IMG/VR virus record: IMGVR_UViG_3300042519_000334
Span: 1-61,636 of that record
Origin: a virus
Taxonomy: Duplodnaviria > Caudoviricetes
Length of the DNA stretch: 61,636 nucleotides
Strand: one strand, 5' to 3'
Under the pieces are notes generated by a model. The model saw only the letters and a list, made by a program, of their open reading frames with translations, ran no database searches and was not told the DNA's origin. Made by a program: the position numbers and the translations under genes. Shown here piece by piece: positions 11,040-60,388 of this stretch; within the stretch, counting starts at the first letter, position 1; each line of letters begins with the position of its first letter.

Positions 11040-11042
11040 CTA

Positions 11043-11970: not shown

Positions 11971-14900
11971 TTACTTCTTTCTTAATCTGTCGTACTCGTA
12001 CTTGAACTTAGCAGAGAAACTGTATCCAGACTCTTGATAGATTTGTTTTCTAAGGTCTAGTAGCTCATCATCGCTCATATCTCCGTAAAGCAAGTAAACT
12101 TTTTTCGCTCTAGCTTCTTCATCTTTTGAGTATATAATCTCATTAGTATTTTGAGACGCTGAACGCTTCTTAGCAGCAGTTAAGAACGAATCTCTATAGT
12201 ACATTGCATCAACAACATTAGACTTCTTAACTTCTTCCACTTGAAGCTTAGCCTTATTAAGGATAGCTTTTTTATCAGCTTCAGTTTCAGCTTTAATGTA
12301 ATCCAGACCAAGTTCCTGAGCTGAGTCTCTAATTTTCATACGCTTACTTCCTGACTCTTGGTCGATACGCATAAGGTCTTCCTTTTGATTGTATACCTTC
12401 CAGTCTGGGTTTGTCTCACCCCATAGGGATTTACTTACCGACATTCCATTTTTTCCAAGAGCAGCTACGACTTTAGATGCGGCTGACTTGCTTTCTGCGG
12501 CAGACATATCATTGTCGAGTGGCACAACTGATGTAATAATATCTAGCAGTCCGTATGTAGCACCAACAACTAACGACGAGCTTGGGCTAGTTATAACTTT
12601 CTCAACTGACGCCTTAAGTCGAGCAGGTGATACACCGCTCTTCTCTCCAGTGGTTAACTCTTGAAGCTCCCCAGTAACCTTTCCGATAACTTTGTAGAAT
12701 CTCTCTACATTGGGGTCATTGATGCCCTCGTCCATAGGTAGAATCTCGTTGAAGTCCATAGTGACAGCACGGTCCCTGAATAGGTCGTAGTTGGTTAGAT
12801 AGGTCAGCGCCATACTGATAGATGGGACTGATGATGTAATCTCAGACAGTGATGCTCCAGTAGGCATAGCACTCTTAACAGAGTTTAACGCATAACCAAG
12901 CAAGTCATCAGACGGAGAATACTTATCGTTACCCGTAATAGATGCAAGAGCATAACCATTCATAATGTCCATCAGTGCGAAGAATGGGACCATCTGTTGT
13001 GGCTTAGCAATCTTTATGTATGCCCTTCTCTCTTTGCCCTTCTCGTCAGTGTACTTGGTTGGAAGCATAATAATGAAGTAGCGAAGCTTAACTTCATCTG
13101 GAATTTCATCCATATCGTCATCACCTACGAGAGCATTAACCATAGCAAGTATCATCATACCAGCCTGAGCCTGCAAGAACTTAGAAGCAAACTTTTTTGG
13201 GTTGGCTCTAATGTAGTCAGCAGATACTCTGAAGCCTTGGAAGGCAGAGTTGATGTATGGCTTGAATACCTCAAGTCCCTTAGTAAGGTTACCTCCTTGA
13301 GCGAAGTCAATGATAGAACGAGCTTTGTTTACTGCCTTAGCCTTGATTAGTTCTAGGTCGTCACCAGTAGGCTCCTGACCGTACTTGCTTTCAAACTCAG
13401 CTGCTGCGTCGTCTCTGAATTTCTTGTATACAGCTACACGGAATCCAACTTCGGAAATCTCACCTATACTAGACAGTCTGTCTACGAACTTATCCAGCTT
13501 GCCCTTGTCTGCTCGGAGTGAACCCGGACGGCCATCAGTTGATAGGAAGTCCATACCGCCACCCATCTCCATATATTCTTGGAAGTACTTGTCGTCAGCC
13601 TTAAACGACTTAACTCCCTTAAGGAAATCCCTCATAAGGTTGTACGAACCAAAGTAGATATTCTGATTATCGTAAACATCAGTGAAGAACAAGATGTGTC
13701 CGAAGTCACGAGGTAAGTTCCTCACAATGAACAATGGGTTGGCACGTGTAGCCAATAGCTTCAACAGTGCAGAACCAGTGATGTAACTGATTGCCTTAGT
13801 TGTCTTAGGTCCAAACTCTAAGAGTCTGTTGGCTCCATCCCACTCACGCTTAAGGTCAGTACGAAGCTGGAACTTGGACTGCGCGCCATTCTCGTAGAAA
13901 TATACAGTCTCAAAACCAGTTGACGCATCACCGCTAGGGTCTTGCGGTTTCACCCACTCCCTATTTGTGTTATCTAGGGCAGCCTTAAACAACGCCTTAT
14001 TTGCTCGGTTCTTTAGGATTCTAGACGATGCTGAGGCAGCGTATGCAGCAAGCAAGAATCTAGAGTCCATAATCGTATCGTCAGCACTACCTTCTCTGAT
14101 GGCCTTAACTTGGTCTCCACTCAATCCGTAATCACGTACTGATACATCGTTATCACCGAAGTCAAATGCGTGGTTCAGGAACACACGTGGAGAGTAGTCA
14201 AAGTCTTTAATCTTGTCGTACAACTCTTTAGTGATGAGACCATTCTTGTATACGTCGTCAAGGATGCTTCTAAACTCAGCGAAGTATGCATCAGCACGCT
14301 TGTTAAGCTCCTCGAAGTTTGCAACTTCTCTAGATAGTCTGCTAAGTTCTGCAATCGCTCCCTCTTTGTCGATGTATGAATTGTTCTTTCTATCCTGAGT
14401 GTGGCGAGGACGATTCGTTTCAGCAAGCAAACCTTGAAGTCTCTCGAATTCAGCAGTTGCTTTCTCGAGTTCAGCCTTAAGCTTATTCTTCTTCTCTACG
14501 TTTACGTTGCTAGCTAGCGATGCCACTCTAGATGAGGCATAGTCCATATCGACCTTAGCCTGAGCCAACTGCTCGGTAATACTAGCTCTCCTGTCGTCAA
14601 ACGACTGGTCAACCTCGATTACACGACGAAGGAATACAATCTTATTGAGAGCCTTAACGGCATCCTCAGATAGTCCTCCGAAAATCTTTCTATCGGCTTT
14701 GTTTACAGAATACTTTGCACGAGCACTTGCTCCAGCCTTGTTCACAAGAAAATCATAGGCTCCGTCAACTCTTGCGTTCAGAAGCTCACGCTTGATGTTA
14801 GACTGCCTATCAAACAGTGCATTGCGAAGCTTTCTTACATTGAATACGCTCTTGTACCAAGGCTCTTCGTAAACCCTGTCCTCGAACTGCTTGTAGATGT

Positions 14901-17900
14901 TGTCAATGTTTGCGGCAGCAACTCTCTTGGGTCCCATACTGCCGTCCAAGAAGTCATTGTATACTTCTCTAGCTGAGTAGTCAGATACTCCGAGCTGAGA
15001 CATTAGGTTAACAAACTCATCCTCAGAGATGCGAGGCACGAGTCTTCCATTAGTATAATCAGATACACTCTTTAGGTAATCGTACTCGTTGCCTCCAGCT
15101 TGCAGGCGGCTCATACCTTTCTGCATAGCCTCTGGAGTAATCGTGAATCCGAAGTTGCGAAGAGTCTCTACTACCTTTTTGAATGTTTCTGGACTCCAAG
15201 CGTTCAAGTAGTGAATCTTGTGGACTCTATCTACCTTATATCCATCGTCAGTAAACAGTTTTGCATCCTCGCTACCTTTCTTCTTGGTGTGGTCAGCGAA
15301 TCGAACCTCAAATGTTCTAGCAATCTCCTTGTCTGCGTCTCCACCTTTAAACTTTAAGTATCTACCAGAGCTTGCGTCTGAGTCATTCTTTACTACATCA
15401 GTGTACTCGAGCAAGAAGCGCATATTCTTCTTTGGCTCGTTCTGTAGCGAGTTATAGATTGCGTTAAACGCATTGAAGGAGTTAAGGTTAGACTTGTCTA
15501 CAAGCTGATATTTCTCCTTAAGCTTGGCTTTGTTGCTTATTTTTTCTTCGGCTTCGGAAAGAAGTCGATGTAGGTTTTCCCAAGATTTTCCTTTGTAGCG
15601 TTGCGAATTCCGTGCTTCGCCAATAATTCGTCCATAGTCAGACTCTTGGATGAATCTGACGTCGGCTTGTTGGGTTGTGAGTTCTGCATCTTTAGTTAGA
15701 TTGTTTTCTTTTACGAAGTTAAAGAACTTGCTTATGTTTTCCAAGTATTCATCAAGAGAAAGTCCCCAAGATTCTATTTGAGTATTCCAAGCGAATGATA
15801 TTCTGTTCTTTCCTGACTCGATGGTGTACGAGAATCCAGCGTTGAGACCCATCTCGTCAATCTTGTCGAGTAGTGACTTCTGAGCCTTAGTCTCAAGGTT
15901 GATTTCAGTGAGAAGACCAGTTCCTTTCTCGTCTACTCTTGAGATGAGTGCTGAGTTTTGAATCTCTTTAGCCAATGCCCCGTTAAGTGCCGCAATCAGT
16001 TCAGCATCATCCATAGAGATAGAAGCTTCAATTCGACTTGAAGTCTCTACGGTAACTCTACCTGTTTCGAAGTTTCTGTATCCACCGATGTTATCGTACT
16101 GCTTGATTGTCTCAGCGAGGTTAGGGTCGAAAGCATCTACGATTCTAGTCTGCTCTTTCTTTAGGGCCACGTATGCTTCATCACTCTTAAATGCGGCCTT
16201 AGCTTCATCTACGTTTGTAATCTTAGTCTCAACATATGGCGCGGCACTGATTGAGAACGCCCTAAGGCTGTTAGCAACCTTAGCTTTACGTCTAACCTCA
16301 GTAATGGCTTGAGCTTGCTCTTCTTTGGTTCTAGTACTCTTTTTAGACTTAGCAGAACTCACATACATAGAGCCAGCAACAGATGTGGCAACAGACGTAG
16401 GGCTACCCGAGGCAGAAACAAACTGTTGCTCTGAAAATATCTTATCTACGTAATATTTACCATCAAGTAAGAATGGGTCCTCACCGTGGAACTTACTGTT
16501 GAACTGCGGGTGTACGAATTTACCATCCTTACTCTTAGACAGGTATTCTTGTGCGCCCATATACGGGTCATTCACAAAGAACCCACTCAATGAGTACCCA
16601 CTGTCTCCGTCACCCTTAAGGTTGTCAACGATATTCTTATCTAAGTACTCGCTAAAGAACGCCTTATTATTGAATCCAGCTCTAAGTAGTGCATTTCTAG
16701 CAGCTGCGCCCGGACCAGATACCGCCTGTACTCCCGGGATGAAATTCTCAAGGAAATCACGACGAGTCTTGAAGTCCATCTTATCGTTTGAAGAAACCAA
16801 GCGCTGTAGCGCATCGTGTCCTTCTTTAGTCGTGAAGTCACTGCTTTGAACAGCTTCAGAAAGCATTCTAATCTTTTTGATTGTAGCTTGTCTGATGGCC
16901 TTGTTTTTCTCGTAATCGCTTTTGCCTTCCTTGCTGGCGATGTTCTTCTCAAGCTTGGCCACTTCCTTCTCAACGAAGTCGTTAAGCGAGCTCTTGAATT
17001 CTGACTGAGAAATATCTCCAGACTCAATAGCCTTAGAGATTCCATCAGCAAAGAACTTAGCCCCGTATGCGTTACCAAAGGCAGCACCCGGAGATTGAAT
17101 CATAACGAATACAGATACTGGCTTTCCAACGTGTTCTGGATTAGAAGCATCTCGCTCTTCGGCTACACGCTTGATAAGGTCACCGAGCTCAGTAACCTTG
17201 TTATCCGCCGATGCAGCGAAGCCAATTTTATCGTCAATGTTCTGCTTGATAAATGAGTATCCAAAACCTCCGTAAACATCTTGACCGTCAGCCGCGTGAC
17301 GGATGGCTGTTCCGTCTGAGTTGATGATTACGAATGCACCGCCTGAACGCTCAAGGACAGAGTCCATAGATAGTTTGTCTTTAACATCGACAACCTCTAC
17401 GTTCTTAGGCATTTCATCATTGAACGAGATATCTACAGGCGTGAACTGCTGCTTCTTATTTGTGGGTCCTCCATCGTATACGCCTCGTGCTATTACAGAG
17501 CCGAGCTCTAGGTCTTCCACGTTAACTGCTACACCACCGCCAAGCGAGTTAGAGATTGAACGCATAGCATCAATCAGTTGGGCGCTAGTGGGGGCTACAT
17601 TGAACTTAGTGCCGAGAAACTTATTGATTATCTCAAGGAACTTAGTGGCGAGCGAGCGCTTAACCTCAATGTCAATCTGATTTGACGCAATGAGTGATGA
17701 CAGCTCAGTAACAAACTCATCGTCTAGTTCTGCCTCAGAAGCACCCATAGCTTGATACTTCTCAATGAAGTTACCCATATACTGGGTAAGCGCCTTGTCT
17801 TTGAGTATAGCACTACGAAGCGTCTTAGCTAACTTCTTGGTCCCTTCTACTCCGAGTATATCTGGTGCTACTTCGTGGACTGCTTCGTGGTAAACAGTGT

Positions 17901-20064
17901 TTGAAGCGATGGCTGGTACGAACAAGTGAATCTCGCTAATGCCACCTTCTTCTTTGACGTGCATACCTCTAGCAAGCACGTTGTCTCCAGATGCCTTCTT
18001 AAATGACTCAGCGTTAGTATGGGATACTACACGTACATCTCTACCAGACTTGGACAGTGAATCAATCACGTTCTGGATAGACTGAACGCCAGACAGAACG
18101 TCCTGCTTGGTTGTACCAGATAATGCGAAGAAGTCGTCTGCCTTTTCGTTTACGTAGTTAGACAGCCAGTCAATAGCATTGCCAGCAGTTGATTGGTTAA
18201 TCTTGAGGCTACGAACCTTAGGACCTAACTCCTGCTCAACTGCTTGCGTTACTTCTTGAGGTGTTTGAAGAACTCCACCTGCCTGAGTCGTTTGAGCGCC
18301 TGCTCCTTCGATAGGTTGGGCTTGCTGAGTGGCTTGCCCTGCTTGGATAGGACTTGATACTTGTTGTTGCGCTTGGCTATCATACTTCTGTTCGATTTTG
18401 GCTTTCTCTGCTAGAGCATTCTTAATGTCCGAAACTAACTGAGCCTTAGCCTCAGAGCTAGTGAGCTTACTGTAGTTCTTCATCCCATTAGAGATGGTCT
18501 GGTCAAGTTTTATTGTTTTCGTAAGGTCCTCTGCCGAGTAGTTAGAATAGAATGCCTCTGCATCCTGCTGCATTTTCTTTTCTTTTTTCCTAAACTCTTC
18601 CAGCCTCGGCTCTAGCAACTTCTTTTCTTCTACAGATACACTAGGGTCATTTTTGATATTTTGGATTTCTTGAATCTTATTACGAACCTCAACTCTGTCG
18701 CCAAATATTGGGGTACGAAGCATTGCAGATGGACCTTTGGTTGCTACATATTGAAGACCGCCGACTCCACCACCCATAGCCGCACCAACGAATACAGACT
18801 CAGCAATATTCATATAGTCAACCTTGTCTCCAGCAAGTACTTTCTGTAATACTTCTTGAGTTACACCAACAATACCTTCTTCAAGTCCCTCCTCTAAAGG
18901 CTGTCTAGCTATCTGTGGTAATTTACCGAACAGCATATCACCAAACTCTTTCTTTGGCATTTTAGCCACGTCTTCAGCTGTGCCAAAGATTGCACGAACT
19001 GCTTTAATATCAGATGCAAACAGTTTCTCAGTTGCATACTCAGCAAGACCTACTCCTGTAGCGTATATTACCTTCTCTATGTCATTATACCTGTCGTCAT
19101 TTACTACCTCGTTAAACGCGCTACCTGAAGAAATAACACCAAGTGCGGCGGGGCCAGCTATAACTCCAGCAGCTAGATTCATACTCTGGTCAAGCATATC
19201 CATACCAAGCAGAGTGAGGTCCCCCTCAAGAGCCATACCTAATGAGCCCTTCTCTATCTGTTCATCTGTGTATCCAAGATTAAATCTAGATGCATACGTT
19301 TGTATCGATACAAGTTTAGCTGCATCTGTACTTGCTCTCTGAAAAATGTTTCCTTCCAAGAACTTATCTGCATCAGCGCCGACTAAGTAGTATGGAACTC
19401 TAGCTGCCATATCTACAAATCCAGTAACTCCCGAAATAAGAGAGTTGAATCCTCTACTTAGGAAACTACTTTCTTCAGCGATTTTCTTCTGCTCTTTAGC
19501 AAACAGTTCGATTTGAGACTTCATATCTGCATCTATAGAAGACACAGCAGCTGGGTTTATTGAACCGTTTTCATTGAATAGAGACGTGGGAGCGAGATTA
19601 TCCTCATCCAACTCCTTATATGCTACGTATGTTTTTTCAAGCTCTGGACGTATCTTTTCAAAGTCTTCAGCTGTTTTGACTGATGACAACTTCATTGCCA
19701 ATTCAGTACCAGCTTCTGCTCTTTGAGTTGTAAGCCAGTCTCGTCTTACGTTTTTAGTTTCCTCCTTTGGGTCTTGAGCTCCCTGAAAACCAACACCTTG
19801 AGCCTGACGGAATCCAGTAGGGCCCCAAGTTACTTGCTGACCAAGTTGATTAGTTTTCTGAGAATCCGAAGAAGAAGGCCCTTGAGCCTGCGTGGATTGT
19901 GATTCCGAACCGGAAGGTCTTTTTTTTTTACTGCCGTAGAAGTTAGCCGCTAACGCAATATCGTCGTCGGCGTAACCATTCTTTTTCATTGCGGCAGAGA
20001 CCTCGTCAATTGACTTCCCACTGGCGTAGGCCTTCTCAAGAATTGCCTTAAGTTCTTCGTTCAT
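11971..20064 (-). CDS. Giant polyvalent, probably ejected virion protein (2697 aa)
   Basis: Zincin-like YHEAVHE; C-terminal LPD38-like region (IIDFAQGG...PYINSAFQG); lies after the tail genes. Confidence 0.7.
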   Translation of the reverse strand: MNEELKAILEKAYASGKSIDEVSAAMKKNGYADDDIALAANFYGSKKKRPSGSESQSTQAQGPSSSDSQKTNQLGQQVTWGPTGFRQAQGVGFQGAQDPKEETKNVRRDWLTTQRAEAGTELAMKLSSVKTAEDFEKIRPELEKTYVAYKELDEDNLAPTSLFNENGSINPAAVSSIDADMKSQIELFAKEQKKIAEESSFLSRGFNSLISGVTGFVDMAARVPYYLVGADADKFLEGNIFQRASTDAAKLVSIQTYASRFNLGYTDEQIEKGSLGMALEGDLTLLGMDMLDQSMNLAAGVIAGPAALGVISSGSAFNEVVNDDRYNDIEKVIYATGVGLAEYATEKLFASDIKAVRAIFGTAEDVAKMPKKEFGDMLFGKLPQIARQPLEEGLEEGIVGVTQEVLQKVLAGDKVDYMNIAESVFVGAAMGGGVGGLQYVATKGPSAMLRTPIFGDRVEVRNKIQEIQNIKNDPSVSVEEKKLLEPRLEEFRKKEKKMQQDAEAFYSNYSAEDLTKTIKLDQTISNGMKNYSKLTSSEAKAQLVSDIKNALAEKAKIEQKYDSQAQQQVSSPIQAGQATQQAQPIEGAGAQTTQAGGVLQTPQEVTQAVEQELGPKVRSLKINQSTAGNAIDWLSNYVNEKADDFFALSGTTKQDVLSGVQSIQNVIDSLSKSGRDVRVVSHTNAESFKKASGDNVLARGMHVKEEGGISEIHLFVPAIASNTVYHEAVHEVAPDILGVEGTKKLAKTLRSAILKDKALTQYMGNFIEKYQAMGASEAELDDEFVTELSSLIASNQIDIEVKRSLATKFLEIINKFLGTKFNVAPTSAQLIDAMRSISNSLGGGVAVNVEDLELGSVIARGVYDGGPTNKKQQFTPVDISFNDEMPKNVEVVDVKDKLSMDSVLERSGGAFVIINSDGTAIRHAADGQDVYGGFGYSFIKQNIDDKIGFAASADNKVTELGDLIKRVAEERDASNPEHVGKPVSVFVMIQSPGAAFGNAYGAKFFADGISKAIESGDISQSEFKSSLNDFVEKEVAKLEKNIASKEGKSDYEKNKAIRQATIKKIRMLSEAVQSSDFTTKEGHDALQRLVSSNDKMDFKTRRDFLENFIPGVQAVSGPGAAARNALLRAGFNNKAFFSEYLDKNIVDNLKGDGDSGYSLSGFFVNDPYMGAQEYLSKSKDGKFVHPQFNSKFHGEDPFLLDGKYYVDKIFSEQQFVSASGSPTSVATSVAGSMYVSSAKSKKSTRTKEEQAQAITEVRRKAKVANSLRAFSISAAPYVETKITNVDEAKAAFKSDEAYVALKKEQTRIVDAFDPNLAETIKQYDNIGGYRNFETGRVTVETSSRIEASISMDDAELIAALNGALAKEIQNSALISRVDEKGTGLLTEINLETKAQKSLLDKIDEMGLNAGFSYTIESGKNRISFAWNTQIESWGLSLDEYLENISKFFNFVKENNLTKDAELTTQQADVRFIQESDYGRIIGEARNSQRYKGKSWENLHRLLSEAEEKISNKAKLKEKYQLVDKSNLNSFNAFNAIYNSLQNEPKKNMRFLLEYTDVVKNDSDASSGRYLKFKGGDADKEIARTFEVRFADHTKKKGSEDAKLFTDDGYKVDRVHKIHYLNAWSPETFKKVVETLRNFGFTITPEAMQKGMSRLQAGGNEYDYLKSVSDYTNGRLVPRISEDEFVNLMSQLGVSDYSAREVYNDFLDGSMGPKRVAAANIDNIYKQFEDRVYEEPWYKSVFNVRKLRNALFDRQSNIKRELLNARVDGAYDFLVNKAGASARAKYSVNKADRKIFGGLSEDAVKALNKIVFLRRVIEVDQSFDDRRASITEQLAQAKVDMDYASSRVASLASNVNVEKKNKLKAELEKATAEFERLQGLLAETNRPRHTQDRKNNSYIDKEGAIAELSRLSREVANFEELNKRADAYFAEFRSILDDVYKNGLITKELYDKIKDFDYSPRVFLNHAFDFGDNDVSVRDYGLSGDQVKAIREGSADDTIMDSRFLLAAYAASASSRILKNRANKALFKAALDNTNREWVKPQDPSGDASTGFETVYFYENGAQSKFQLRTDLKREWDGANRLLEFGPKTTKAISYITGSALLKLLATRANPLFIVRNLPRDFGHILFFTDVYDNQNIYFGSYNLMRDFLKGVKSFKADDKYFQEYMEMGGGMDFLSTDGRPGSLRADKGKLDKFVDRLSSIGEISEVGFRVAVYKKFRDDAAAEFESKYGQEPTGDDLELIKAKAVNKARSIIDFAQGGNLTKGLEVFKPYINSAFQGFRVSADYIRANPKKFASKFLQAQAGMMILAMVNALVGDDDMDEIPDEVKLRYFIIMLPTKYTDEKGKERRAYIKIAKPQQMVPFFALMDIMNGYALASITGNDKYSPSDDLLGYALNSVKSAMPTGASLSEITSSVPSISMALTYLTNYDLFRDRAVTMDFNEILPMDEGINDPNVERFYKVIGKVTGELQELTTGEKSGVSPARLKASVEKVITSPSSSLVVGATYGLLDIITSVVPLDNDMSAAESKSAASKVVAALGKNGMSVSKSLWGETNPDWKVYNQKEDLMRIDQESGSKRMKIRDSAQELGLDYIKAETEADKKAILNKAKLQVEEVKKSNVVDAMYYRDSFLTAAKKRSASQNTNEIIYSKDEEARAKKVYLLYGDMSDDELLDLRKQIYQESGYSFSAKFKYEYDRLRKK

Positions 20065-20099
20065 AGCATTGTATATCTGCGATATGCAAATATACTAAA

Positions 20100-51343: not shown

Positions 51344-52012
51344 TTACAGTCCCTTAAGCATTTGAATCATCTCGGGCTGTGGGAAGATATCAATCTTATC
51401 CTTACGTACTGAGTTGTGCGTATATACTCCTGCGACACCATTCAGTGCATTCATAGATACATCCCACATATCCTCCTCACGATAGTCCAGCGGGATATCA
51501 TAAATCTCATTCCAGTACTTCAAGAGATTCTCAACACTGCGAATCTGCTCATCGGTGTATCTGTGGAAGTGGATATGCTTCTTGTACGGGGAATCAAGGG
51601 TACATACATCCTCCTTGGCCACCTCACGATTGACGTAGTTGTAGTACTTACCGCCACGCTCCTCTAGCTGTCCCCAAGCACAAATCTCAATACCGATAGA
51701 AATCTTATCGAGCACCTTGTGTGGGACACCGTACCCCTTGAAGATTTCAGCCTTAGCACCTAAGTGGTAGGCCCAGTACTTAGATGGGAATCCCTGCACG
51801 ATGCGTCCATCTCCTTCCTTAGCTCCCTTTCCGCTGATACAAACACACGTTGCGATACGACCTCTTGAGTCGGTATCCCACTGCTTGAATGTAGATACCC
51901 CACTTGAGTTACCTGCGGTGTGGTGTAGGTAAATCTGCTTCTTCGGAGCAGCCTCCTTGATGTACTCGGTAGGTGAAAACTCTACCTGCAAGATGTCCTT
52001 GAGAAATTCCAT
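51344..52012 (-). CDS. N-acetylmuramoyl-L-alanine amidase (endolysin)
   Basis: IYLHHTAG, WAYH.G, SIGIEI and THNSVR.DK.D Amidase_2 motifs. Confidence 0.9.
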   Translation of the reverse strand: MEFLKDILQVEFSPTEYIKEAAPKKQIYLHHTAGNSSGVSTFKQWDTDSRGRIATCVCISGKGAKEGDGRIVQGFPSKYWAYHLGAKAEIFKGYGVPHKVLDKISIGIEICAWGQLEERGGKYYNYVNREVAKEDVCTLDSPYKKHIHFHRYTDEQIRSVENLLKYWNEIYDIPLDYREEDMWDVSMNALNGVAGVYTHNSVRKDKIDIFPQPEMIQMLKGL

Positions 52013-52016
52013 AGAA

Positions 52017-52024
52017 CAAAGATA
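52017..52024 (-). promoter_or_regulatory. Late promoter -7 element, one of at least 12 minus-strand TAnnTTTG sites
   Basis: CAAAnnTA on the plus strand just upstream of minus-strand genes at 11957, 20087, 22278, 28095, 31636, 32411, 33669, 34442, 41518, 43441, 45914 and 52017. Confidence 0.8.
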
Positions 52025-52096
52025 ATGATTGTATACGATAGGTGATTATGTCGGTACTATGTATTACACACTATTGATTATGTCATTTTTTTTGTG

Positions 52097-52270
52097 TAAC
52101 TTTGCCCCTGTAGTGCAAGGGCACGCAGACGAACAATAGTATACGCAACGTAACATAGACGTAACTACGGACCGATGCATAGGCGGACAGCCCAAAAGCG
52201 ACAGTCCGCCTCTGCAAAAATAGGGCGACAGCCACTACGCAAAGCACTTGAATACAGGAGGCGTGTGTCC
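52097..52270 (+). ncRNA. Candidate promoter-driven small structured RNA
   Basis: TAACTTTG at 52097-52104 with no credible ORF downstream; stems TGCA-AGGCGGAC/GTCCGCCT-TGCA and GTAGTG/CACTAC. Confidence 0.45.
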
Positions 52271-52874
52271 AAGCAGTTCCTATCCACAAGAATACTCATT
52301 TAACTGCTCGTATACAGTATTCTACTGTTGTTTTCACGTTTTAGAAACACATATAGTAGTAGGTGGGTGATGGATACTTTTTTAATTCGTACGAGTTCTA
52401 GGTACCGTGGGGAGAATTATACAAGAGCGACGCTGACGAACCAACTCCGAAACCGAATCGCAAACCCAACCCCCTCGTAATCAGCGCGTTACGTTCAAAC
52501 TTTTTAGCGTTTTGTCTATAGGTAGGCGCTCAAGTAGAGTATCTATTCTATGTCGGCTAGGCGTTCGTTTACTGAACGTATTCAGGTCGTTTGCTGTAGA
52601 AAAAGGTAAACTTTTCGTGTACTGAACGTATGCTTTTTTTCGTGGGTGTGGTCGGTCGTAGACCTGCATCAATCCCCTCTCTACTTTTCCCCACTTTTCA
52701 CCACTCGTTCCCTTCATCTTTCTTAGTACGTTTCGCTGTATGTTTCGTGTATGTTTATTTAGTATACTATAGTAGACAGGGCCTCAGTTAACGATTACGG
52801 CAGGAATTATACTAATAGTTTAAACAGCGGAAAAAGTATGCTTTTGCCCGTATTTGGTACATATTGGGTCGGGT

Positions 52875-53126
52875 TAGGCCGTTGGTGTTCAGTCAGTTAG
52901 GTGCTGAATTACGTACATACGATTTCTTAAATGACGCTGATTATCAGGTAGTTACGTTAACTCGTTGTGTTTCAGTATGTTGTAACTTGCTGAGTTTTAG
53001 CCTGTTAGTAACTAATTGATTCTCAGCGGTTTACTAACTCGTTGATTATCAGGTAGTATTATTTAGAACGATTCTAAATTTCATCTCGAAGCAACTTTTT
53101 TTTTGGTGCTGATTATCAAGCAGTTA
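52875..53126. repeat. Array of seven degenerate 25-bp palindromes TAAC-N4-TGA-N3-TCA-N4-GTTA
   Basis: Copies start at 52875, 52930, 52958, 52983, 53009, 53035 and 53102. Confidence 0.8.
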
Positions 53127-53174
53127 GCCCTATATATTCCTATAAGGGGCGTGGGCTCCTCGAAATTTCTCTTG

Positions 53175-53212
53175 GCTAAAGTTTGCATATTTGTAAAGCC
53201 GCAGTATATTTG
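53175..53212 (+). promoter_or_regulatory. Major early promoter
   Basis: TTTG at 53182-85 and TATATTTG at 53205-12; first consensus promoter in front of the early gene block. Confidence 0.8.
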
Positions 53213-53216
53213 TGGA

Positions 53217-53835
53217 GTCGAAAGGCCAACGGGCCACCACCACTCGACGAAGTTTTTTGAAATATCAACCGAAACGCGAACTCAGAGTCGGAGACAAGAG
53301 CAGAGCGCGGTAGGCAGGAAAGTCCCAAGTGACGATAGACGAACGGATGTTGGCGAAAACGCCTCTCCAATTTCTGAAACCCACCTTGTGAACCTTGTAC
53401 GATTGAGTCAGTGAGCCACGGCCACTTTCTCTCGGGCGTTAAGGAGCGGAGTAGCAGGTCAGGTCAGAATAGTAGAGTGATGTAAGCAGAAAGCGTAGCG
53501 CAAGTAAGCCAACACAGGTCGATTGAAAGTAGCGAGGGCAGGTAGACAAGACAAGCAAAGCCAAGTACGGCGGCCGTAAGAAACACGAGTCCAAACCTAA
53601 TGAAGCAAAGCGCCGTGGCGCGGAGCGACAAGCAGTGCGGAGGAGTCCAATGAACGCCACCTGAACACCTGAGTGAATCGAGTCAAACAAAGCCGAGAAC
53701 AACATCAAGCGAAAGACAGGATATGCGGTGCGTAAACAGCGCCGCCAAAGGATAGCAGATGTGGTCGAACTAACAGCATATGCGGTCAACAGGCTCACGC
53801 CACAGGCCGCCAAAAAAGTTCACCTGTTCAAGGCA
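53217..53835 (+). ncRNA. Candidate large structured non-coding RNA
   Basis: Follows the promoter; no credible plus-strand ORF; purine-rich and T-poor; several 6-8 bp long-range complementarities. Confidence 0.55.
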
Positions 53836-53839
53836 CACT

Positions 53840-53891
53840 ACTGCCGCTTGGAGTGCACATCGTGCATAGGGTTCGAGTCCCTACGGCAGTC
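53840..53891 (+). ncRNA. Minimal tRNA-like element (acceptor stem plus T arm, no D stem or anticodon loop)
   Basis: ACTGCCG/CGGCAGT 7 bp, TAGGG-TTCGAGT-CCCTA T arm contiguous with the acceptor 3' strand, TGCAC/GTGCA mini-hairpin, TGG linker. Confidence 0.7.
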
Positions 53892-53923
53892 AAACTTTAA
53901 CCACTAATCTAAAATCAATCACT

Positions 53924-54133
53924 ATGAAAATTAAAGAAATCGCCATTTTATTTCTTCAATTCTTATTCGTAACCACCATAATCCTACTTCCATTTGTTAT
54001 TGTCTTTTCGTTGGCAGACGAAGACCCGCGTGAGAGAATAGAAATAGAAGATGGAACGAGAGTAATTACAATGGACGGAGACACAATCGAAGTTCACGCA
54101 TACAAATTTTTGTACGCATACAAGGTTAACTGA
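53924..54133 (+). CDS. Small membrane protein
   Basis: N-terminal TM helix; its stop TGA lies in the hammerhead core. Confidence 0.7.
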   Translation: MKIKEIAILFLQFLFVTTIILLPFVIVFSLADEDPRERIEIEDGTRVITMDGDTIEVHAYKFLYAYKVN

Positions 54134-54174
54134 TGAGCGCTTTAATAGCCGAAACGTCGTGAGACGTCTTAACC
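54124..54174 (+). ncRNA. Type I hammerhead ribozyme (HHR1)
   Basis: GGTTAA-CTGATGA-stem II-GAAA-CGTC GTGA GACG-TC-TTAACC; predicted GUC cleavage after 54168. Confidence 0.9.
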
Positions 54175-54198
54175 AAAAACAATTTAATTCTTTTCGTT

Positions 54199-55722
54199 AT
54201 GAGAGTTACCAATATCGTATCAGGCCGTCAGATTGAAATCCGCCGCTCTTACTACAACGAGCAGTTCAACTTCTACTTCGGTATCAACAACGACTTCTTT
54301 GTGTACACCTACGCCAACAACGAAGGTGAACTTAACCGCACTCGTTTCCCTCGCGCACTCAACGCCGCTGAGTGGGGCATCGACCTTCGTACGGGCACTC
54401 ACTCGTCAGCAACATTCGAACTGCGCGGTCAACAAATTCTGCGAGGTCGCTACTTCCGTAGCGAGCAGGTATCTGAGCAACGCATCTTAGGTATTCCGCA
54501 CGTTACGCTAACTAATGATGAGAAGGCCAACTTCGCTGTTCGTGTGGCAGAGTCAAGCGGACACAACTCAAACGTGTTTGTATCACTGCTCATCGGGGAA
54601 GTACTGCATACAACTGACCTTGTCGTTCGTAATTACTCAACTACTTCGGCGAAGTTCTACGATGCGAACGGAGTGTCTCACGTGCTAAATTTCCAAGACA
54701 ACGAGTACGGCCACGTTATGTCTGCAATTCGTGAAGGTCGCACTGAGTACTTAACAGGTCGCGACCTGTTAGGCAATACGTCAATCTTCGCCAACGCTGA
54801 GATTCAGGAGCGCTTCGGTGCAGCCCCTGAACTTAGCGGTTACCACGGCCCATCACGCAACACCGAAATCTTCAACGATTCATCAGTTGAGTGGTTCGTA
54901 GGTTTCGAGGTCGAGAAGGAGGACCTGAATGTTCGCAACCGCTGCGCTCGTGCTAACTGCAACTTGGGTGACGGATGGATTGCAGAACGCGACGGCTCAC
55001 TCGATTCATCGACAGGTGTCGAGGTCGTGTCACCTGTACTCAACCTGTTCGATACGAAGACATTGTTCGAGCAGTTCGAGAAGTACGATTGGGTTATGAA
55101 CGCAGAGTACTCACGCCGCTGTGGTGGCCACATCACCATCAGCCGTCGTGGAATTTCAGCCGATGACCTCGTCGACAAGTTGGCTCCGTTCGTGCCTATG
55201 CTTTTCTCGCTATACGAAGGCCGCCTGTCCAATCAGTACAGCGGAGTTCAGAGCAAGGACGAAATCAAGCGAGGTTCACGCCGCGCCATCAACAACTGCT
55301 CACGTGCATACAATAACCGCAAGGAGGCAGTTGAGATTCGCATCTTCAGCGCAGTATCTACGCTCGAGTCAATTAAGTTCCGCACGAAGTTGGTTCAGTG
55401 GATATGCGCTCACATCGACAAGGGCACGTTCACCACGTTCACTCAGGTGGCCGATGCTATGTTCAACGACAAGAAGTTGAACAAGTTACTTCGTCAGCAG
55501 TACAGCGCTGAGAAGTTAGCACGTAAGCAGGCACTCACCTACGTGTTCGGCGGATGTCTCGAAGGTCAGTCACCGAGCGAGTTTCTCACCGATGCTGACA
55601 ACTACGACCGCACCATCGAGCGTATGAAGCGAGCCTACGACAGCGTACAGGGCTACGTTCGCCGCGAGGTCGAGAGCAAGTTCGGTACTTACTCAGTCAA
55701 TAAGGCCGCAGGTAAGTTGTAA
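54199..55722 (+). CDS. Putative amidoligase (COOH-NH2 ligase, Amidoligase_2-like)
   Basis: GFEVE, ERDGSL, GVEVVSP, CGGHI and VEIRIF motifs. Confidence 0.8.
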   Translation: MRVTNIVSGRQIEIRRSYYNEQFNFYFGINNDFFVYTYANNEGELNRTRFPRALNAAEWGIDLRTGTHSSATFELRGQQILRGRYFRSEQVSEQRILGIPHVTLTNDEKANFAVRVAESSGHNSNVFVSLLIGEVLHTTDLVVRNYSTTSAKFYDANGVSHVLNFQDNEYGHVMSAIREGRTEYLTGRDLLGNTSIFANAEIQERFGAAPELSGYHGPSRNTEIFNDSSVEWFVGFEVEKEDLNVRNRCARANCNLGDGWIAERDGSLDSSTGVEVVSPVLNLFDTKTLFEQFEKYDWVMNAEYSRRCGGHITISRRGISADDLVDKLAPFVPMLFSLYEGRLSNQYSGVQSKDEIKRGSRRAINNCSRAYNNRKEAVEIRIFSAVSTLESIKFRTKLVQWICAHIDKGTFTTFTQVADAMFNDKKLNKLLRQQYSAEKLARKQALTYVFGGCLEGQSPSEFLTDADNYDRTIERMKRAYDSVQGYVRREVESKFGTYSVNKAAGKL

Positions 55723-55754
55723 GATGTCCCCTCCGTGTAAGGGTGGTTAAGGTG

Positions 55755-55786
55755 AGCAGGCGTTGCACGGAGCGCCCTGCTTTTTT
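55755..55786 (+). terminator. Intrinsic terminator whose loop is complementary to upstream sequence
   Basis: AGCAGGCG...CGCCCTGCT followed by TTTTT; loop TTGCACGGAG pairs with CTCCGTGTAA (55731-40). Confidence 0.6.
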
Positions 55787-55805
55787 CACTATCACGAATC
55801 AAATT

Positions 55806-56006
55806 ATGAAACACGAACTAAACGAAATGATGCGAGCCTACGAAAACTACCTGAGTAAGGTATCGAGGTTCATCGAAGCAACCGACGAAACCGAACGCTA
55901 CAAGTTGATTGCGTTCGATATAATCGAGCGGCAAAGTATCGACCTCGAAGAAAACTTGGAGGCCGCATACGAAACGCTAACGCAATATCTAGAAGAACGA
56001 GGTTAA
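55806..56006 (+). CDS. Small acidic helical protein
   Basis: ATG after an A-rich leader; its stop TAA lies in HHR2 stem I. Confidence 0.7.
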   Translation: MKHELNEMMRAYENYLSKVSRFIEATDETERYKLIAFDIIERQSIDLEENLEAAYETLTQYLEERG

Positions 56007-56051
56007 CTGACGATGGCTTGAGTAGCCGAAACGCTGTGAAGCGTCTTAACC
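56001..56051 (+). ncRNA. Type I hammerhead ribozyme (HHR2)
   Basis: GGTTAA-CTGACGA-T-GGCT TGAGT AGCC-GAAA-CGCT GTGA AGCG-TC-TTAACC; predicted GUC cleavage after 56045. Confidence 0.92.
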
Positions 56052-56065
56052 ATAAACTAATTAAG

Positions 56066-56467
56066 ATGAACGCTTACAAATTCACCCTTACAATCACAAA
56101 TTCTAACACCTTCATTATTAACGCAGAAAACTATAAGGAGGCGATGAAACTTGCTTACGACAATGGTTTTGCAGATAGAAATGCAGTTAAAGACCTTTGC
56201 GTTCCAACCGAAGTTTACTCAGAACTAACTTGTACTGAAAGCGAAACACCTGAGGGACTAATTCGTGTTTGGACATATTTTAACGCATCGGAAGAAACAG
56301 AGATAGAAGAATTCACGAGTGAGTGGTCTACGTTATTAGGTACGGAAGTCACTTACGACCTCGACCTATCCAACACCGATGAAGATTCTTGGTACTGCGA
56401 AACATTCGTAACGCAAGCGCAAATCGATGAGTTCAATATGAGCGAAGATTGGTTCACCATTCAATAA
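56066..56467 (+). CDS. Acidic hypothetical early protein
   Basis: ATG 20 nt after the HHR2 cleavage site. Confidence 0.7.
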   Translation: MNAYKFTLTITNSNTFIINAENYKEAMKLAYDNGFADRNAVKDLCVPTEVYSELTCTESETPEGLIRVWTYFNASEETEIEEFTSEWSTLLGTEVTYDLDLSNTDEDSWYCETFVTQAQIDEFNMSEDWFTIQ

Positions 56468-56486
56468 TCAGTAAAAAAAAATTAAG

Positions 56487-56609
56487 ATGTACGAACTATC
56501 TATTTCAATCGCACCTACCTACGGCATACTAATCGGAGCCGCAGGTTCAATCGCCGTCGTTATCGTGTCGGCAGTTTTGTCAACCATTCAATTCAAGCAA
56601 AATGTTTAA
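56487..56609 (+). CDS. Small membrane peptide, 40 aa; not in ORF track
   Basis: A-rich leader and a single hydrophobic helix. Confidence 0.5.
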   Translation: MYELSISIAPTYGILIGAAGSIAVVIVSAVLSTIQFKQNV

Positions 56610-56763
56610 AGATATTTTTCTACCACCACCTACTACTTTATTCAAGGTATTCGCACACTACGGAGGCGAGTATCCGTCACGAGTTATGCTGTTCAAGAGT
56701 TATGAGTCAGCAGTTCAGTTCGCACAAGGTGCAGAACAATACGAAATCATTCAAGTAAAATAA
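56602..56763 (+). CDS. Small protein, 53 aa; not in ORF track
   Basis: Fills the gap and overlaps the upstream stop. Confidence 0.55.
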   Translation: MFKDIFLPPPTTLFKVFAHYGGEYPSRVMLFKSYESAVQFAQGAEQYEIIQVK

Positions 56764-56765
56764 TT

Positions 56766-56966
56766 ATGAGCCAAATCGACTTAATCATTCAGTACGAAAG
56801 CGGAGAACTTGACGACCAACAGGTCGTGTTCTTATTTGCCGACCTCGTCCGCACAGGACAGGCTTGGATTCTACAGGGCCACTACGGCCGCACTGCTCAA
56901 CGACTAATTGAGGCAGGATGGATTGACAAAAAAGGTAATGTATCACTTGAAGTATTTGAACTATGA
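56766..56966 (+). CDS. Conserved small phage protein
   Basis: YESGEL...LF..LV.TG.AW.LQGHYGRTA..LIEAG motif. Confidence 0.8.
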   Translation: MSQIDLIIQYESGELDDQQVVFLFADLVRTGQAWILQGHYGRTAQRLIEAGWIDKKGNVSLEVFEL

Positions 56967-57151
56967 ACTTAGAAAACGATAAATCATTCTTTCGTGCAGG
57001 TATGTACCTGTCGACAATTATGCTCGTGATTGGCACAACGGCACGTATCACGCAAGGCCACCCAAGCGAGTCCACAGGAACGCTTATAGTGGGTGGCATC
57101 TTAATCTTCCTAATCTCAGCCTTCGGCTACATCGTTAACTACAACAAATAA
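56963..57151 (+). CDS. Small two-TM membrane protein
   Basis: Two hydrophobic helices; ATGA coupling. Confidence 0.65.
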   Translation: MNLENDKSFFRAGMYLSTIMLVIGTTARITQGHPSESTGTLIVGGILIFLISAFGYIVNYNK

Positions 57152-57163
57152 TCTATTTCAATT

Positions 57164-57967
57164 ATGTGTATTGCAATTGTAAACCAACCAAACTACTTCA
57201 TACCTAAGCAACAACTAAAGAATGCTTGGGACAACAACAACCACGGAGCAGGTATCGCCTACGTCGACAACGGCAGGGTTATGACCTACCACGAGCCGTA
57301 TAGTTTCGAGGACTTCTTCGAGGAGTACGAGTTCATTCGTGAATTGACTGACACGCCCATACTGATTCACTTCCGCATCGCCACGCACGGCAAAGGCATC
57401 GATATGCTCCACCCGCACAGCGTAACCGAAGGTCGTGTATCTCTGATTCACAACGGAGTTATCAGCGGTCTCGGCAACACTATCGTGAGCGACACTCGTG
57501 AGTTCGCAGAAATGCTCAGTAAGTTCTACCCTGACAACGTCGACTTCATCGACCACGTAGGCATCGAGGCTATGGCCCTCGCACTACTCGGTAAATCCAA
57601 CAAGGTCGCGTTACTCGATTGGCGCGGTGAGGTTCGTATCCTCAACGCACACTTGGGTCACTACGACGATTACGGCAATTGGTTCAGTAACACATCGTAC
57701 AAGCAGTTGAATACCTACGTATGGGAGGGGAGCAAGAAGGTCTACAAAAGCCTTACGAAAAGCGCTGTCAAAAACGCTTACCCTGCTCAGCCGACTATTT
57801 GGGATTCAGAACGTAAGGTCGCTGTGCCGGCAATACCTAAGGCTCCCGCGTCAGATTGGCTCGACGAGGATTGGGATGACGAACCATCGTACAAATGGAA
57901 CGCATCACGTGACGAGTTACGTAGCGAGACATTCAGTGCATTCCTTGACGACGACGGACAAATCTAA
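57164..57967 (+). CDS. Class II (Ntn) glutamine amidotransferase
   Basis: N-terminal MC nucleophile; N.HGAG, HFRIATHG, HP, HNGVI and SDT motifs. Confidence 0.9.
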   Translation: MCIAIVNQPNYFIPKQQLKNAWDNNNHGAGIAYVDNGRVMTYHEPYSFEDFFEEYEFIRELTDTPILIHFRIATHGKGIDMLHPHSVTEGRVSLIHNGVISGLGNTIVSDTREFAEMLSKFYPDNVDFIDHVGIEAMALALLGKSNKVALLDWRGEVRILNAHLGHYDDYGNWFSNTSYKQLNTYVWEGSKKVYKSLTKSAVKNAYPAQPTIWDSERKVAVPAIPKAPASDWLDEDWDDEPSYKWNASRDELRSETFSAFLDDDGQI

Positions 57968-58515
57968 TGTTGTACAAGTATGACAAGGTGAACCTCGTGT
58001 TTCGCCCTATCGTAACCACAAGAGGAGTCGCTTCGGGATTGGCCTTAGCGACTGCCCTCTTTGGTTTCGGCCTTTATGGAGTTGACAACGTAGACGAACG
58101 TATCTACGAGAGCATACTTAACGTGAACGTGACGGATGCCGCATTCACGGAAGACCGACTGATTGAGAAATTCAAGCAGTTAAACATCAAGTACCCGCAC
58201 ATCGCATTGGCTCAGGCTAAGTTAGAGAGCGGTAACTTCAGGTCGGACATCTTCAGCGAGAACAACAACCTGTTCGGTATGAAACAGGCACGTGTTCGTG
58301 TGAACTTGGCCGCAGGTACGAAACGTGGGCACGCATACTATGCGACGTGGGAGGACAGCGTCCTCGACTACGCGTATTGGTGCGCTACATATGCAAGCAG
58401 TTGCAGAAGCGAAGACGAGTTCTACGCCCTGCTATCACGTTACGCAGAGGATTCACTCTACGAAACGAAACTTCGCGAGGTCATCGAGCGCGACAGCCTG
58501 CGCGAACTTTTTTAG
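57967..58515 (+). CDS. Membrane-anchored GH73-like glucosaminidase
   Basis: AQAKLESG, NNLFGMK, Y..WEDSV.DY and YA.D..Y motifs; N-terminal hydrophobic segment. Confidence 0.85.
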   Translation: MLYKYDKVNLVFRPIVTTRGVASGLALATALFGFGLYGVDNVDERIYESILNVNVTDAAFTEDRLIEKFKQLNIKYPHIALAQAKLESGNFRSDIFSENNNLFGMKQARVRVNLAAGTKRGHAYYATWEDSVLDYAYWCATYASSCRSEDEFYALLSRYAEDSLYETKLREVIERDSLRELF

Positions 58516-58569
58516 CGTTCACTATCATCGAGAGCATTCGAAACGCAAAACTTCTAAACTTCACTAATT

Positions 58570-58749
58570 ATGGAAAGTAAATTCATCAAAACATCAGTTG
58601 TGTACGTATCCAAACTTGGATTCAAGACACCCGCCCTACTCGTTGACATCAAGACCGACAATCGTTGCCTCGGCAACCATCGTGTCAGGATTATCGACGC
58701 ATACGGCAAAAGCAAATTCACTCCAATTCGTAACATCCAATTCGTATGA
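58570..58749 (+). CDS. Small protein, 59 aa; not in ORF track
   Basis: AT-rich leader; ATGA coupling to 58746. Confidence 0.55.
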   Translation: MESKFIKTSVVYVSKLGFKTPALLVDIKTDNRCLGNHRVRIIDAYGKSKFTPIRNIQFV

Positions 58750-58928
58750 CCTACAACCAAGATATGATTATCTACCTACAGCAACGCATCCAAGCGCTGT
58801 CTAACGAGGTAGAAGAACGAGGCAAGCAGTTGAATAAACTGCAAGAGAGATGCGACTATCTCGAGGCTGAACGTCAACACTTACTTGACCAACTGCTCGA
58901 TAAGCCGTACGTGACTACGTTACGTTGA
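58746..58928 (+). CDS. Small coiled-coil protein
   Basis: Heptad pattern. Confidence 0.65.
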   Translation: MTYNQDMIIYLQQRIQALSNEVEERGKQLNKLQERCDYLEAERQHLLDQLLDKPYVTTLR

Positions 58929-58953
58929 GTTATCAACACTTGTTTACAAAGCA

Positions 58954-58984
58954 TTGATTGTCTCACTAACGAGCGCTAACTTCG
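58954..58984 (+). promoter_or_regulatory. Variant promoter
   Basis: TTG at 58954 and TAACTTCG at 58977-84; same spacing as the 52074/52097 pair. Confidence 0.5.
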
Positions 58985-59144
58985 CCCTATCGGCTTTGCC
59001 GTAACAGACAACACGATAAGCGGCTATGGGGGCTTTGAAGGGCCCCCTCGCCGCCGACTCGGTAAGACGAACGACTACTCGGTAGTATACGAGCGCAATA
59101 CAGGCGCAATGTGTCAAATAAACAAATAGTGTAATTAACTGAAA

Positions 59145-60117: not shown

Positions 60118-60226
60118 CACCAACAAGGAATTAGAACTCCGCCCGCTTATGGCGCATTAGGTTTCAGCAAGCGGCAAGCTACCGCACTGATTAACGGAGT
60201 CTTTTTTCTTTAACGCCAAATGAAAT

Positions 60227-60356
60227 GAGGGAGTGGTGAGTGAAGCTGTAGTTAGCACACCACTGATAAAGGTGACTATACTGAAAAAGGGTTTAGACTA
60301 AGTATAGGTGAAATCAGGCTAACCAGAAACCTTGAGAGACCCGAAGCCACTCCTTC
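60227..60356 (+). ncRNA. Candidate multi-stem structured RNA
   Basis: 11-bp closing stem plus GTTAGC/GCTAAC, CACC/GGTG and CTATACT/AGTATAG. Confidence 0.5.
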
Positions 60357-60388
60357 TATTTCATATCCAATAAATCATTTACAACCCT

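Follow-up and report, generated by a model that had tools for sequence, protein, structure and literature searches.

How can the transcript of a phage operon be divided into separate RNA units, and by what means? This question is raised by positions 53,175 to 57,967 of the IMG/VR virus record IMGVR_UViG_3300042519_000334, a complete 61,636-bp virus genome (Duplodnaviria; Caudoviricetes) with direct terminal repeats, which was analysed at its full length and is hereafter referred to as the window. On the plus strand of this locus, a promoter, a long RNA, a tRNA-like element (hereafter the mimic), an amidoligase-like gene and an amidotransferase-like gene occur together with small open reading frames (ORFs) and two hammerhead motifs (HHR1, ahead of the amidoligase-like gene, and HHR2, after it), in the order claimed by the first-pass annotation. 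That annotation suggested that these elements could form an undescribed RNA-based system of early expression, in which the first transcript is cut into its units by cis-acting RNA elements with no need of a phage nuclease. Its observation is largely right, and its interpretation is only partly supported. The long RNA with its tRNA-like end appears to be a new and constant feature of the operon, and maturation of this RNA by the tRNA-processing enzymes of the host is the most likely mechanism that the sequence suggests; hammerhead punctuation is a known idea, represented here by a well-defined subfamily.

The long RNA and its tRNA-like end

The layout of the genes places the studied elements at the head of the plus-strand block. 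The minus strand encodes the portal, virion and tail-fibre proteins over about 11.5-52 kb, the plus-strand genes start at about 53.2 kb, extend as far as the genome end and continue at 1-11 kb with the primase/helicase and the ribonucleotide reductase, and a 1.2-kb non-coding region separates the plus-strand block from the divergent late/lysis block. That the plus-strand block is early can reasonably be inferred from this layout. A Bacteroidota-type promoter lies at 53182-53212 (plus strand), with TTTG (−33) at 53182-53185 and TATATTTG (−7) at 53205-53212. The Bacteroidota −7 consensus is TAnnTTTG, and TATATTTG is the sole plus-strand occurrence of it from 53205 until 61614; the box is kept as GTAT(A/G)TTTG in the relatives located together with it. 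The claim that the whole order follows one promoter is borne out to this extent, and internal promoters for the separate units, which would have spoken for independent transcription, are absent from the plus strand up to 61614 as far as this consensus goes. These data fit a single promoter serving the rightward block, to which off-consensus promoters may possibly add. A scan for sigma-70 promoters was uninformative (4 sites vs 8.9 expected).

No credible ORF is found between the promoter and 53923, and the large RNA that had been postulated corresponds to a non-coding stretch of about 620 nt at about 53218-53839 (plus strand), recognised by its homologues and its covarying fold and bounded by estimated ends. 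Homologues were gathered by a neighbour-protein search, a scan with the hammerhead pattern described below and exact-word scans, with removal of chance matches and duplicates. A 17-mer of the long RNA gave 14 stretches in viral contigs, including five chance matches (four in a terminase gene and one unrelated), and an 18-mer gave 34 stretches in metagenome contigs, six of them being true homologues. The long RNA and the mimic occur together in all 13 distinct sequences found, which represent about four lineages (loci are given L numbers where they must be told apart), and the RNA always lies directly after the promoter and ahead of the amidoligase-like gene. Among close relatives in which the neighbouring protein shows only 92% identity, the RNA region hardly varies, and the differences are single-base indels, which rule out a coding function of the long RNA. 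A minus-strand 124-aa ORF (53439-53813) and the short plus-strand ORFs were rejected as genes on account of these 1-nt indels.

Between lineages, the 5' ~110 nt of the long RNA differ and the other ~510 nt are conserved (~570 nt with the mimic). In L135, L137, L161 and L159 the 5' domain (the first about 90-110 nt) is swapped for an unrelated sequence, which holds CGCTCTTTAAAA, differing at 2 of 12 positions from the E. coli boxA. The 5' hairpin of the first-pass annotation was found at 53225-53236 (plus strand; 4 bp, loop AACG). It is present in 9 of the 13 sequences, L149 keeps its pairing through a change on both sides, and the L135-type 5' domain replaces it. The boxA-like site of the same annotation was not recovered, since the plus strand from 53213 to 53900 holds no match with up to three mismatches to this E. 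coli consensus, from which the boxA of the host may differ.

The evidence for the fold of the long RNA comes from covariation. With the tRNA-like fold imposed, the RNAalifold consensus of the 13 sequences comprises 161 pairs in which 96.0% of the cells form standard pairs, and in 28 of these pairs (111 cells) both sides have changed without loss of pairing. When the 3' partners were slid by 1-3 columns as a control, 29-38% of the cells were paired and 3-6 pairs (8-20 cells) had double changes. Because the structure came from the very alignment on which it was tested, a column shuffle followed by refolding (40 times) was added. The unconstrained fold of the real alignment has 30 double-change pairs vs 10.5 ± 3.2 (maximum 16) in the shuffles, and a consensus energy of −267 kcal/mol vs −202 ± 9 kcal/mol. 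Rfam searches at gathering and at E up to 10, one of them confined to 696 nt, assigned the long RNA to no family; GOLLD, ROOL, RNase P RNA and introns were among the models without a match. This result also ruled out the long RNA as an RNase P RNA, an identity suggested by a GGAAAGUCC-like motif. A literature search, not carried to full-text depth, gave no paper describing the long RNA.

The tRNA mimic of the first-pass annotation lies at 53840-53891 (plus strand, 52 nt), directly after the long RNA. Its minimum-free-energy (MFE) fold consists of a 7-bp acceptor stem, a short variable hairpin and a T arm of 5 bp closed by a canonical T loop, followed by a discriminator C, and it has neither a D arm nor an encoded CCA. 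Against the Rfam model mascRNA-menRNA (RF01684), whose gathering score is 42.5 bits, the copy of the window reaches 19.6 bits and that of L002, aligned along the entire model, 31.7 bits (E 0.009). Neither ARAGORN nor Rfam calls a tRNA at the mimic, the only tRNA of the window being a tRNA-Arg at 10966-11040, and no tRNA was called in L001 or L002. The variable hairpin occurs in three different sequences, all of which pair, and enforcing the tRNA-like fold costs less than 1 kcal/mol in the consensus. The acceptor stem and the T arm (a stack of 7 bp and 5 bp, with a UUCGAGU loop) are invariant in the relatives. A stack of acceptor stem and T arm is the minimal signal for RNase P, and since the mimic has such a stack, RNase P is predicted to cut at 53839/53840 and RNase Z after 53891. 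The tRNA-Arg of the phage also lacks an encoded CCA, and consequently the host must mature precursors devoid of CCA.

Traces of the long RNA were looked for in RNA libraries. In six RNA runs, a small fraction of the words of the window was found; four of these runs, from four studies (X15, X17, X18 and X19), were compared, and the small fractions in the other two (X16 and X20) carry no weight. Their contigs provide no strand, true ends or usable depth, and the parts that they leave uncovered carry no weight. The sole matching contig of X15 (550 nt) covers 53231-53780, a 468-nt contig of X17 covers 53230-53697, and two contigs of X19 cover 53230-53451 and 53502-53687. The left end at 53230/53231, i.e. 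18 nt after the promoter box, is common to these three studies, a weak hint that it marks the 5' end of the long RNA.

Hammerhead motifs at the gene junctions

Both hammerheads that had been claimed were found, each with its full core and three stems. HHR1 (54124-54174) and HHR2 (56001-56051), both type I and on the plus strand, have the core CUGANGA ... GAAA ... UH, the cleavage-site GUC, an open 6-bp stem I and capped stems II and III, and are predicted from these elements to cleave themselves at 54168/54169 and 56045/56046, 30 and 20 nt ahead of the next start codon, respectively. In HHR1, stem III has a GUGA loop and stem II has one bulged base (C), which places it among the 7 irregular members of a family of 132. 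In HHR2, A9 is followed by one extra U, as is the case in 16 of the 132, and the U-A pair of HHR2 stem III becomes C-G in L001 and L002. A strict descriptor finds HHR2 and not HHR1, with no match in 200 shuffles of the window.

The family was defined by a search pattern that fixes the core and 4 of the 6 stem I pairs. It matches at least 118 viral contigs, three of which carry the long RNA, and comprises 132 distinct members. Stems II and III form in 124 of them, compared with 0.9 after shuffling of the stem regions, and we take this covariation as a sign that the hammerhead fold is under selection. Stem I is nearly constant as GGUUAA/UUAACC, four of its six pairs being forced by the pattern, and its outer pairs covary (GG/CC, GA/TC, GC/GC). 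A looser descriptor picked up 184 motifs, spread over 117 of 122 sources. In 145 of these 184 motifs, an upstream ORF of at least 40 aa has its stop codon in or just before the 5' arm; in 81 of the 145 the stop codon lies inside the motif, 52 at the TAA of stem I and 29 at the TGA of the core. The next ATG occurs 20-29 nt after the predicted cut in 133 of 181 cases, which points to a role for the downstream gene, and the leader downstream of the family hammerheads is A-rich. Within the window, TTAACC occurs in plus-strand leaders only after the mimic (53897) and after each hammerhead cut (54169 and 56046), 20-30 nt before an ATG.

The comparison of relatives separates what is constant from what is not. 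The promoter, the long RNA, the mimic and the amidoligase-like gene are present in all relatives with enough sequence, and the amidotransferase-like gene in all those that reach that far. The number of hammerheads ranges from none to three. There are three in L128, two each in the window and L137, and one in L001, which has none at the first position. L076 has one intact hammerhead, the second, at the HHR2 position, being deleted to its 5' arm; this residual arm (minus strand of L076, downstream of a 93-aa ORF) still supplies the stop codon. A further match of the pattern in L076, inside a glucosaminidase gene, was taken as a false positive. L136 has no intact hammerhead, and its copy at the HHR2 position (about 3750-3800) has the core U4 changed to C. 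At the first junction, the 69-aa ORF and HHR1 constitute an insertion relative to L001 and L002, where the mimic runs straight into the amidoligase-like gene, and one contig of X18 also has this short form. Other lineages (L039/L128/L016, and L137) have other small ORFs at that place, each with a hammerhead. The insertion of ORF and HHR1 is flanked by TTAACC on both sides. MW202828.1, the closest named phage with an amidoligase-like gene, has neither the long RNA nor this hammerhead pattern. As the hammerheads number from none to three while the rest is constant, and as most family members occur in contigs that lack the long RNA, we regard the elements as independent modules. The idea of one co-inherited system does not agree with these numbers, nor with the mutated copy of L136, the deletion in L076 and the presence of the long RNA in 3 of the at least 118 contigs. 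The idea that the transcript is cut by cis elements holds in part: the motifs lie exactly at the unit boundaries, and the mimic would need RNase P and RNase Z from the host, so that the processing would not be purely cis.

Nor is punctuation by hammerheads undescribed, since a publication on clustered hammerheads in phage transcripts exists. Perreault et al. 2011 (PMC3088659) found that the hammerheads of phages and prophages flank single genes or short blocks in one orientation, put forward the view that clusters of hammerheads divide long phage transcripts into mRNAs of gene length, and observed cleavage of other examples from phage clusters, both in vitro and in E. coli. Clustering within phage polycistronic transcripts is common to those hammerheads and to the present ones. 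From the examples described there, the present hammerheads differ in being type I, with a near-invariant GGUUAA/UUAACC stem I, fused to a stop codon and located 20-29 nt before an ATG. As a family of 132 distinct members that are stop-fused, at a fixed distance from a start codon and missed by Rfam, they offer a large natural data set on why phages cut their mRNAs.

Possible readings of the locus

We propose, with moderate confidence, that this promoter-driven block is processed in two ways, host RNase P and RNase Z releasing a stable RNA at the mimic and optional hammerheads cutting the mRNA before start codons. The rightward block would be transcribed from one Bacteroidota-type promoter (53182-53212), and its first ~620 nt would fold into an elaborate conserved RNA with a tRNA-like element built into its end. 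There, host RNase P would most likely cut at 53839/53840, and RNase Z or 3' trimming would act after 53891. As in the case of MALAT1/mascRNA, the long RNA would be freed as a separate and presumably stable molecule, and the mRNA would be left with a short A-rich leader. The type I hammerheads, each joined to the stop codon of a small ORF, would divide the polycistronic mRNA at 54168/54169 and 56045/56046, as optional add-ons that presumably come and go with the small-ORF cassettes and not as obligatory parts of a cascade.

Several observations weigh against this proposal. The RNA contigs end at 53780, 53697 and 53687, none of them at the predicted RNase P site. X17 also contains short pieces of three other places, mRNA pieces whose contig depth is similar to that of the long RNA, and one contig of X18 extends from the long RNA across the mimic as far as the amidoligase-like gene; as many parts of the window are covered by X18, among them the non-transcribed upstream region, the X18 material may represent DNA or unprocessed RNA. 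The mimic scores below the RF01684 gathering score and is not a member of that family, and since its acceptor stem and T arm never vary, covariation cannot test these two stems. Taken as a single sequence, the long RNA has an MFE (−181.8) less favourable than the mean of its shuffles (−193.8; z +2.19), of which 20 of 20 fold at least as well; the energy thus gives no single-sequence support, and the case for the fold rests on covariation among relatives that comprise only about four lineages. Concerning the hammerheads, both HHR1 and HHR2 depart by 1 nt from the regular form at the base of stem II, where 109 of the 132 family members are canonical. The Rfam hammerhead models report neither of them (gathering threshold, and E up to 10 on 6.6 kb), nor HHR2 in a scan of as little as 81 nt. 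Being lost in L076, mutated in L136 and absent from the first position of L001, the hammerheads are dispensable. Finally, the host, and hence the type of promoter, was deduced solely from the relatives of the terminase.

As to the long RNA, it might instead be a leader that acts in cis, by antitermination (like the HK022 put RNA or boxA/Nus) or by control of translation or stability, with the mimic as a structural module. Its location at the very 5' end of a block of ~8.4 kb with a single consensus promoter, the conserved terminator-like hairpin and U tract after the first large gene of that block, and the presence of CGCTCTTTAAAA, near the E. coli boxA, in the 5' domain of L135, L137, L161 and L159 all agree with such a leader. 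We nevertheless judge it unlikely, because the leader of the window itself has no boxA-like site, the RNA contigs in X15 and X19 consist of the long RNA alone, and terminator-like sites are not enriched in 51500-59000 (6 vs 6.4 expected). To our knowledge, moreover, the known antiterminator RNAs are far smaller than 620 nt, which also counts against a leader in cis. It is far less probable still that 53213-53839 acts as DNA, i.e. as a replication origin or a packaging or regulatory site, with an incidental RNA fold. The region does adjoin the 1.2-kb non-coding control region with its three iteron-like repeats, and its single-sequence fold is not unusually stable, but its compensatory changes are far above the column-shuffle null, it is found in the RNA libraries of three studies with a common start 18 nt past the promoter box, and a tRNA-like element is attached to it.

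The hammerheads leave room for two other readings. One of them, put forward in the first-pass annotation, unites all elements in one obligatory RNA-only processing cascade for early expression. The order of the elements, the coincidence of the cut sites with the unit boundaries and the confinement of TTAACC with an A-rich leader to the plus-strand leaders after the mimic, HHR1 and HHR2 speak for such a cascade. It becomes improbable in view of relatives that keep all else with none to three hammerheads, some copies being decayed or deleted, of the small share of the at least 118 contigs (three) that have the long RNA, of MW202828.1, which has an amidoligase-like gene and neither RNA nor this hammerhead pattern, and of the dependence of the mimic on host enzymes; its hammerhead part is, besides, already published. 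The other reading, to which we give some weight while doubting it, takes the hammerheads for scars left at the junctions, or for selfish passengers, of mobile small-ORF cassettes; their stem I would aid exchange or provide stop codons with little effect on expression. The indel of the 69-aa ORF and HHR1 relative to L001/L002, the short form in X18, the TTAACC that bounds the inserted block on both sides, the different small ORFs that precede a hammerhead at the same place elsewhere, the near-constancy of stem I (within a pattern that forced 4 of the 6 pairs) and the stop codons within the motif (81/145) all fit mobile cassettes. Mere scars would, however, hardly account for the covariation that preserves stems II and III in 124 of 132 members, nor for the tight spacing of the next ATG (20-29 nt in 133 of 181).

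Our preferred reading, with a host-processed long RNA and optional hammerheads, can be extended in a speculative direction that we consider unlikely. In this extension, the ~620-nt RNA would be a new class of large ornate phage RNA, the first product of the infection, matured in the manner of MALAT1 by host RNase P at its tRNA-like handle and acting in trans (for instance by assembling itself into a scaffold or by modifying the host polymerase or ribosomes), and the hammerheads with the near-universal GGUUAA/UUAACC stem I would be interchangeable junctions for the exchange of cassettes between phages.

Three known systems help to place the long RNA. In MALAT1/mascRNA and MEN-beta/menRNA (RF01684), RNase P forms the 3' end of a long non-coding RNA at a tRNA-like element. 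Likewise, the long non-coding RNA of the window is directly followed by a tRNA-like element without a D arm (acceptor stem, T arm and short hairpin). Unlike the mimic, the MALAT1/mascRNA family is vertebrate and nuclear, and the likeness implies no common descent. In tRNA punctuation, RNase P separates the parts of bacterial operon mRNAs and of the precursor of the C4 RNA of phages P1 and P7. There, as proposed here, a tRNA or tRNA-like fold marks the point of separation by host RNase P; what would be separated here, in contrast to those cases, is a large structured RNA, and hammerheads occupy the other junctions. The third comparison is with GOLLD and ROOL, which a preprint (bioRxiv 10.1101/2024.12.08.627333) describes as phage-encoded RNAs of 600-800 nt with elaborate, covarying folds that are adjacent or covalently linked to tRNAs. 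The RNA of the window resembles GOLLD in its conserved 3' part and variable 5' part, and differs from both GOLLD and ROOL in matching neither of their Rfam models, in lying at the 5' end of an early operon and not in a tRNA island, and in being known only from a single clade of phages from freshwater. Phage RNAs of this large, structured sort are few and their function is unsolved, so that a further class would be an independent case for comparison. The first-transcribed position of the long RNA, its covalent tRNA-like handle and its traces in metatranscriptomes make its maturation directly testable.

Genes of the operon and other features of the genome

The ORF described as transmembrane by the first-pass annotation is the 69-aa ORF (53924-54133, plus strand), which has one hydrophobic N-terminal segment, no family match and a stop codon formed by the TGA inside the core of HHR1. 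The amidoligase-like gene (54199-55722, plus strand) encodes a 507-aa protein that resembles Amidoligase_2, a glutamine-synthetase-type ligase. The assignment as an amidoligase survives in a weaker form, by way of the homologues: 7 of 32 aligned homologues match PF12224 (best E 2e-4), and the 507-aa protein itself has no Pfam hit. The residues E237, E239, E263, D265, S267, E275, H311, R342, E379 and R381 are invariant in its homologues, an acidic/His/Arg set that presumably fits the amidoligase fold. A sequence search of the PDB with the amidoligase-like profile gave no match, and the protein can be proposed only as a distant relative of Amidoligase_2, below curated cut-offs.

The terminator that had been noted between the genes is present as an intergenic terminator-like element at 55729-55786 (plus strand), made of a small hairpin (55729-55743), a GC-rich hairpin (55756-55780) and a U6 tract (55781-55786). 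The GC-rich hairpin and the U tract would qualify as an intrinsic terminator by description (match at 55759-55776 plus tail). In L076, L136 and L137 the GC-rich stem has a different sequence that keeps the pairing, and the U tract is weaker (UUUCUUUCC). The next gene is a 66-aa ORF (55806-56006, plus strand) with homologues that are 76-98% identical and a stop codon formed by the TAA inside stem I of HHR2. A 93-aa extended form of this ORF, which would cover the terminator-like hairpin, was rejected because the frame is closed in the window. Five small ORFs follow on the plus strand at 56066-57151, of 133, 40 and 53 aa, a DUF7417 protein (66 aa) and a hydrophobic one of 62 aa.

The amidotransferase-like gene (57164-57967, plus strand) encodes a 267-aa protein of the class II (N-terminal Cys) glutamine-amidotransferase type, which starts with MC and is 77-100% identical in the relatives. 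Behind its designation as a glutamine amidotransferase stand the presence of Cys2 and only sub-threshold matches, to GATase_6 (E 0.004, 17.6 bits vs a cut-off of 27), to the N-terminal region only of glmS (E 6e-7, 28.3 bits vs a cut-off of 418) and to EgtC (E 0.0025, far below its cut-off), and no score reaches the cut-off of its model. A sequence search of the PDB with this protein gave nothing meaningful, and it may be called amidotransferase-like only as a distant relative. Gene pairs of an amidoligase and a class II amidotransferase were reportedly described in phages by Iyer et al. in 2009. The association of an Amidoligase_2-like ligase with an N-terminal-Cys amidotransferase in one phage operon is similar to those pairs, from which it differs in that both proteins of the window are too divergent for curated cut-offs. 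In MW202828.1, the gene adjoining the amidoligase-like gene is annotated as a gamma-glutamyl cyclotransferase.

As judged from its large terminase, the phage of the window is a podophage related to Flavobacterium and Cellulophaga phages: this protein is 48% identical to that of the uncultured podovirus MW202828.1 and ~40% identical to those of Flavobacterium phages, and Cellulophaga phages also match. A blastn comparison of 52000-58000 with named phages gave no match. The structural block on the minus strand contains an ORF of 2,697 aa (11971-20064) that has no PHROG match at E 1e-5. The exact octamer TATATTTG also occurs on the minus strand at 20087, 28095, 32411, 34442, 43441 and 45914, directly upstream of late structural genes, and these copies are probably the late promoters of the phage.

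Upstream of the early promoter, by 90-270 nt, a 19-nt repeat whose core is palindromic (GCTGATTATCAGGTAGTTA type) occurs three times (52936-52954, 53041-53059 and 53108-53126). The copies are kept in relatives and may be operator or iteron sites. Relatives also keep the non-coding stretch 52040-52520, in which a hairpin of 13 bp lies at 52176-52216. Weak nhmmer hits connect this stretch, which may hold another RNA or a DNA site, with two hammerhead loci (L123 and L086) that are unrelated in other respects. Two further non-coding gaps of the rightward gene block, both without an Rfam match, contain a GC-rich hairpin around 59027-59048 (gap 58929-59144) and a long hairpin followed by a T run at ~60138-60209 (gap 60118-60388).

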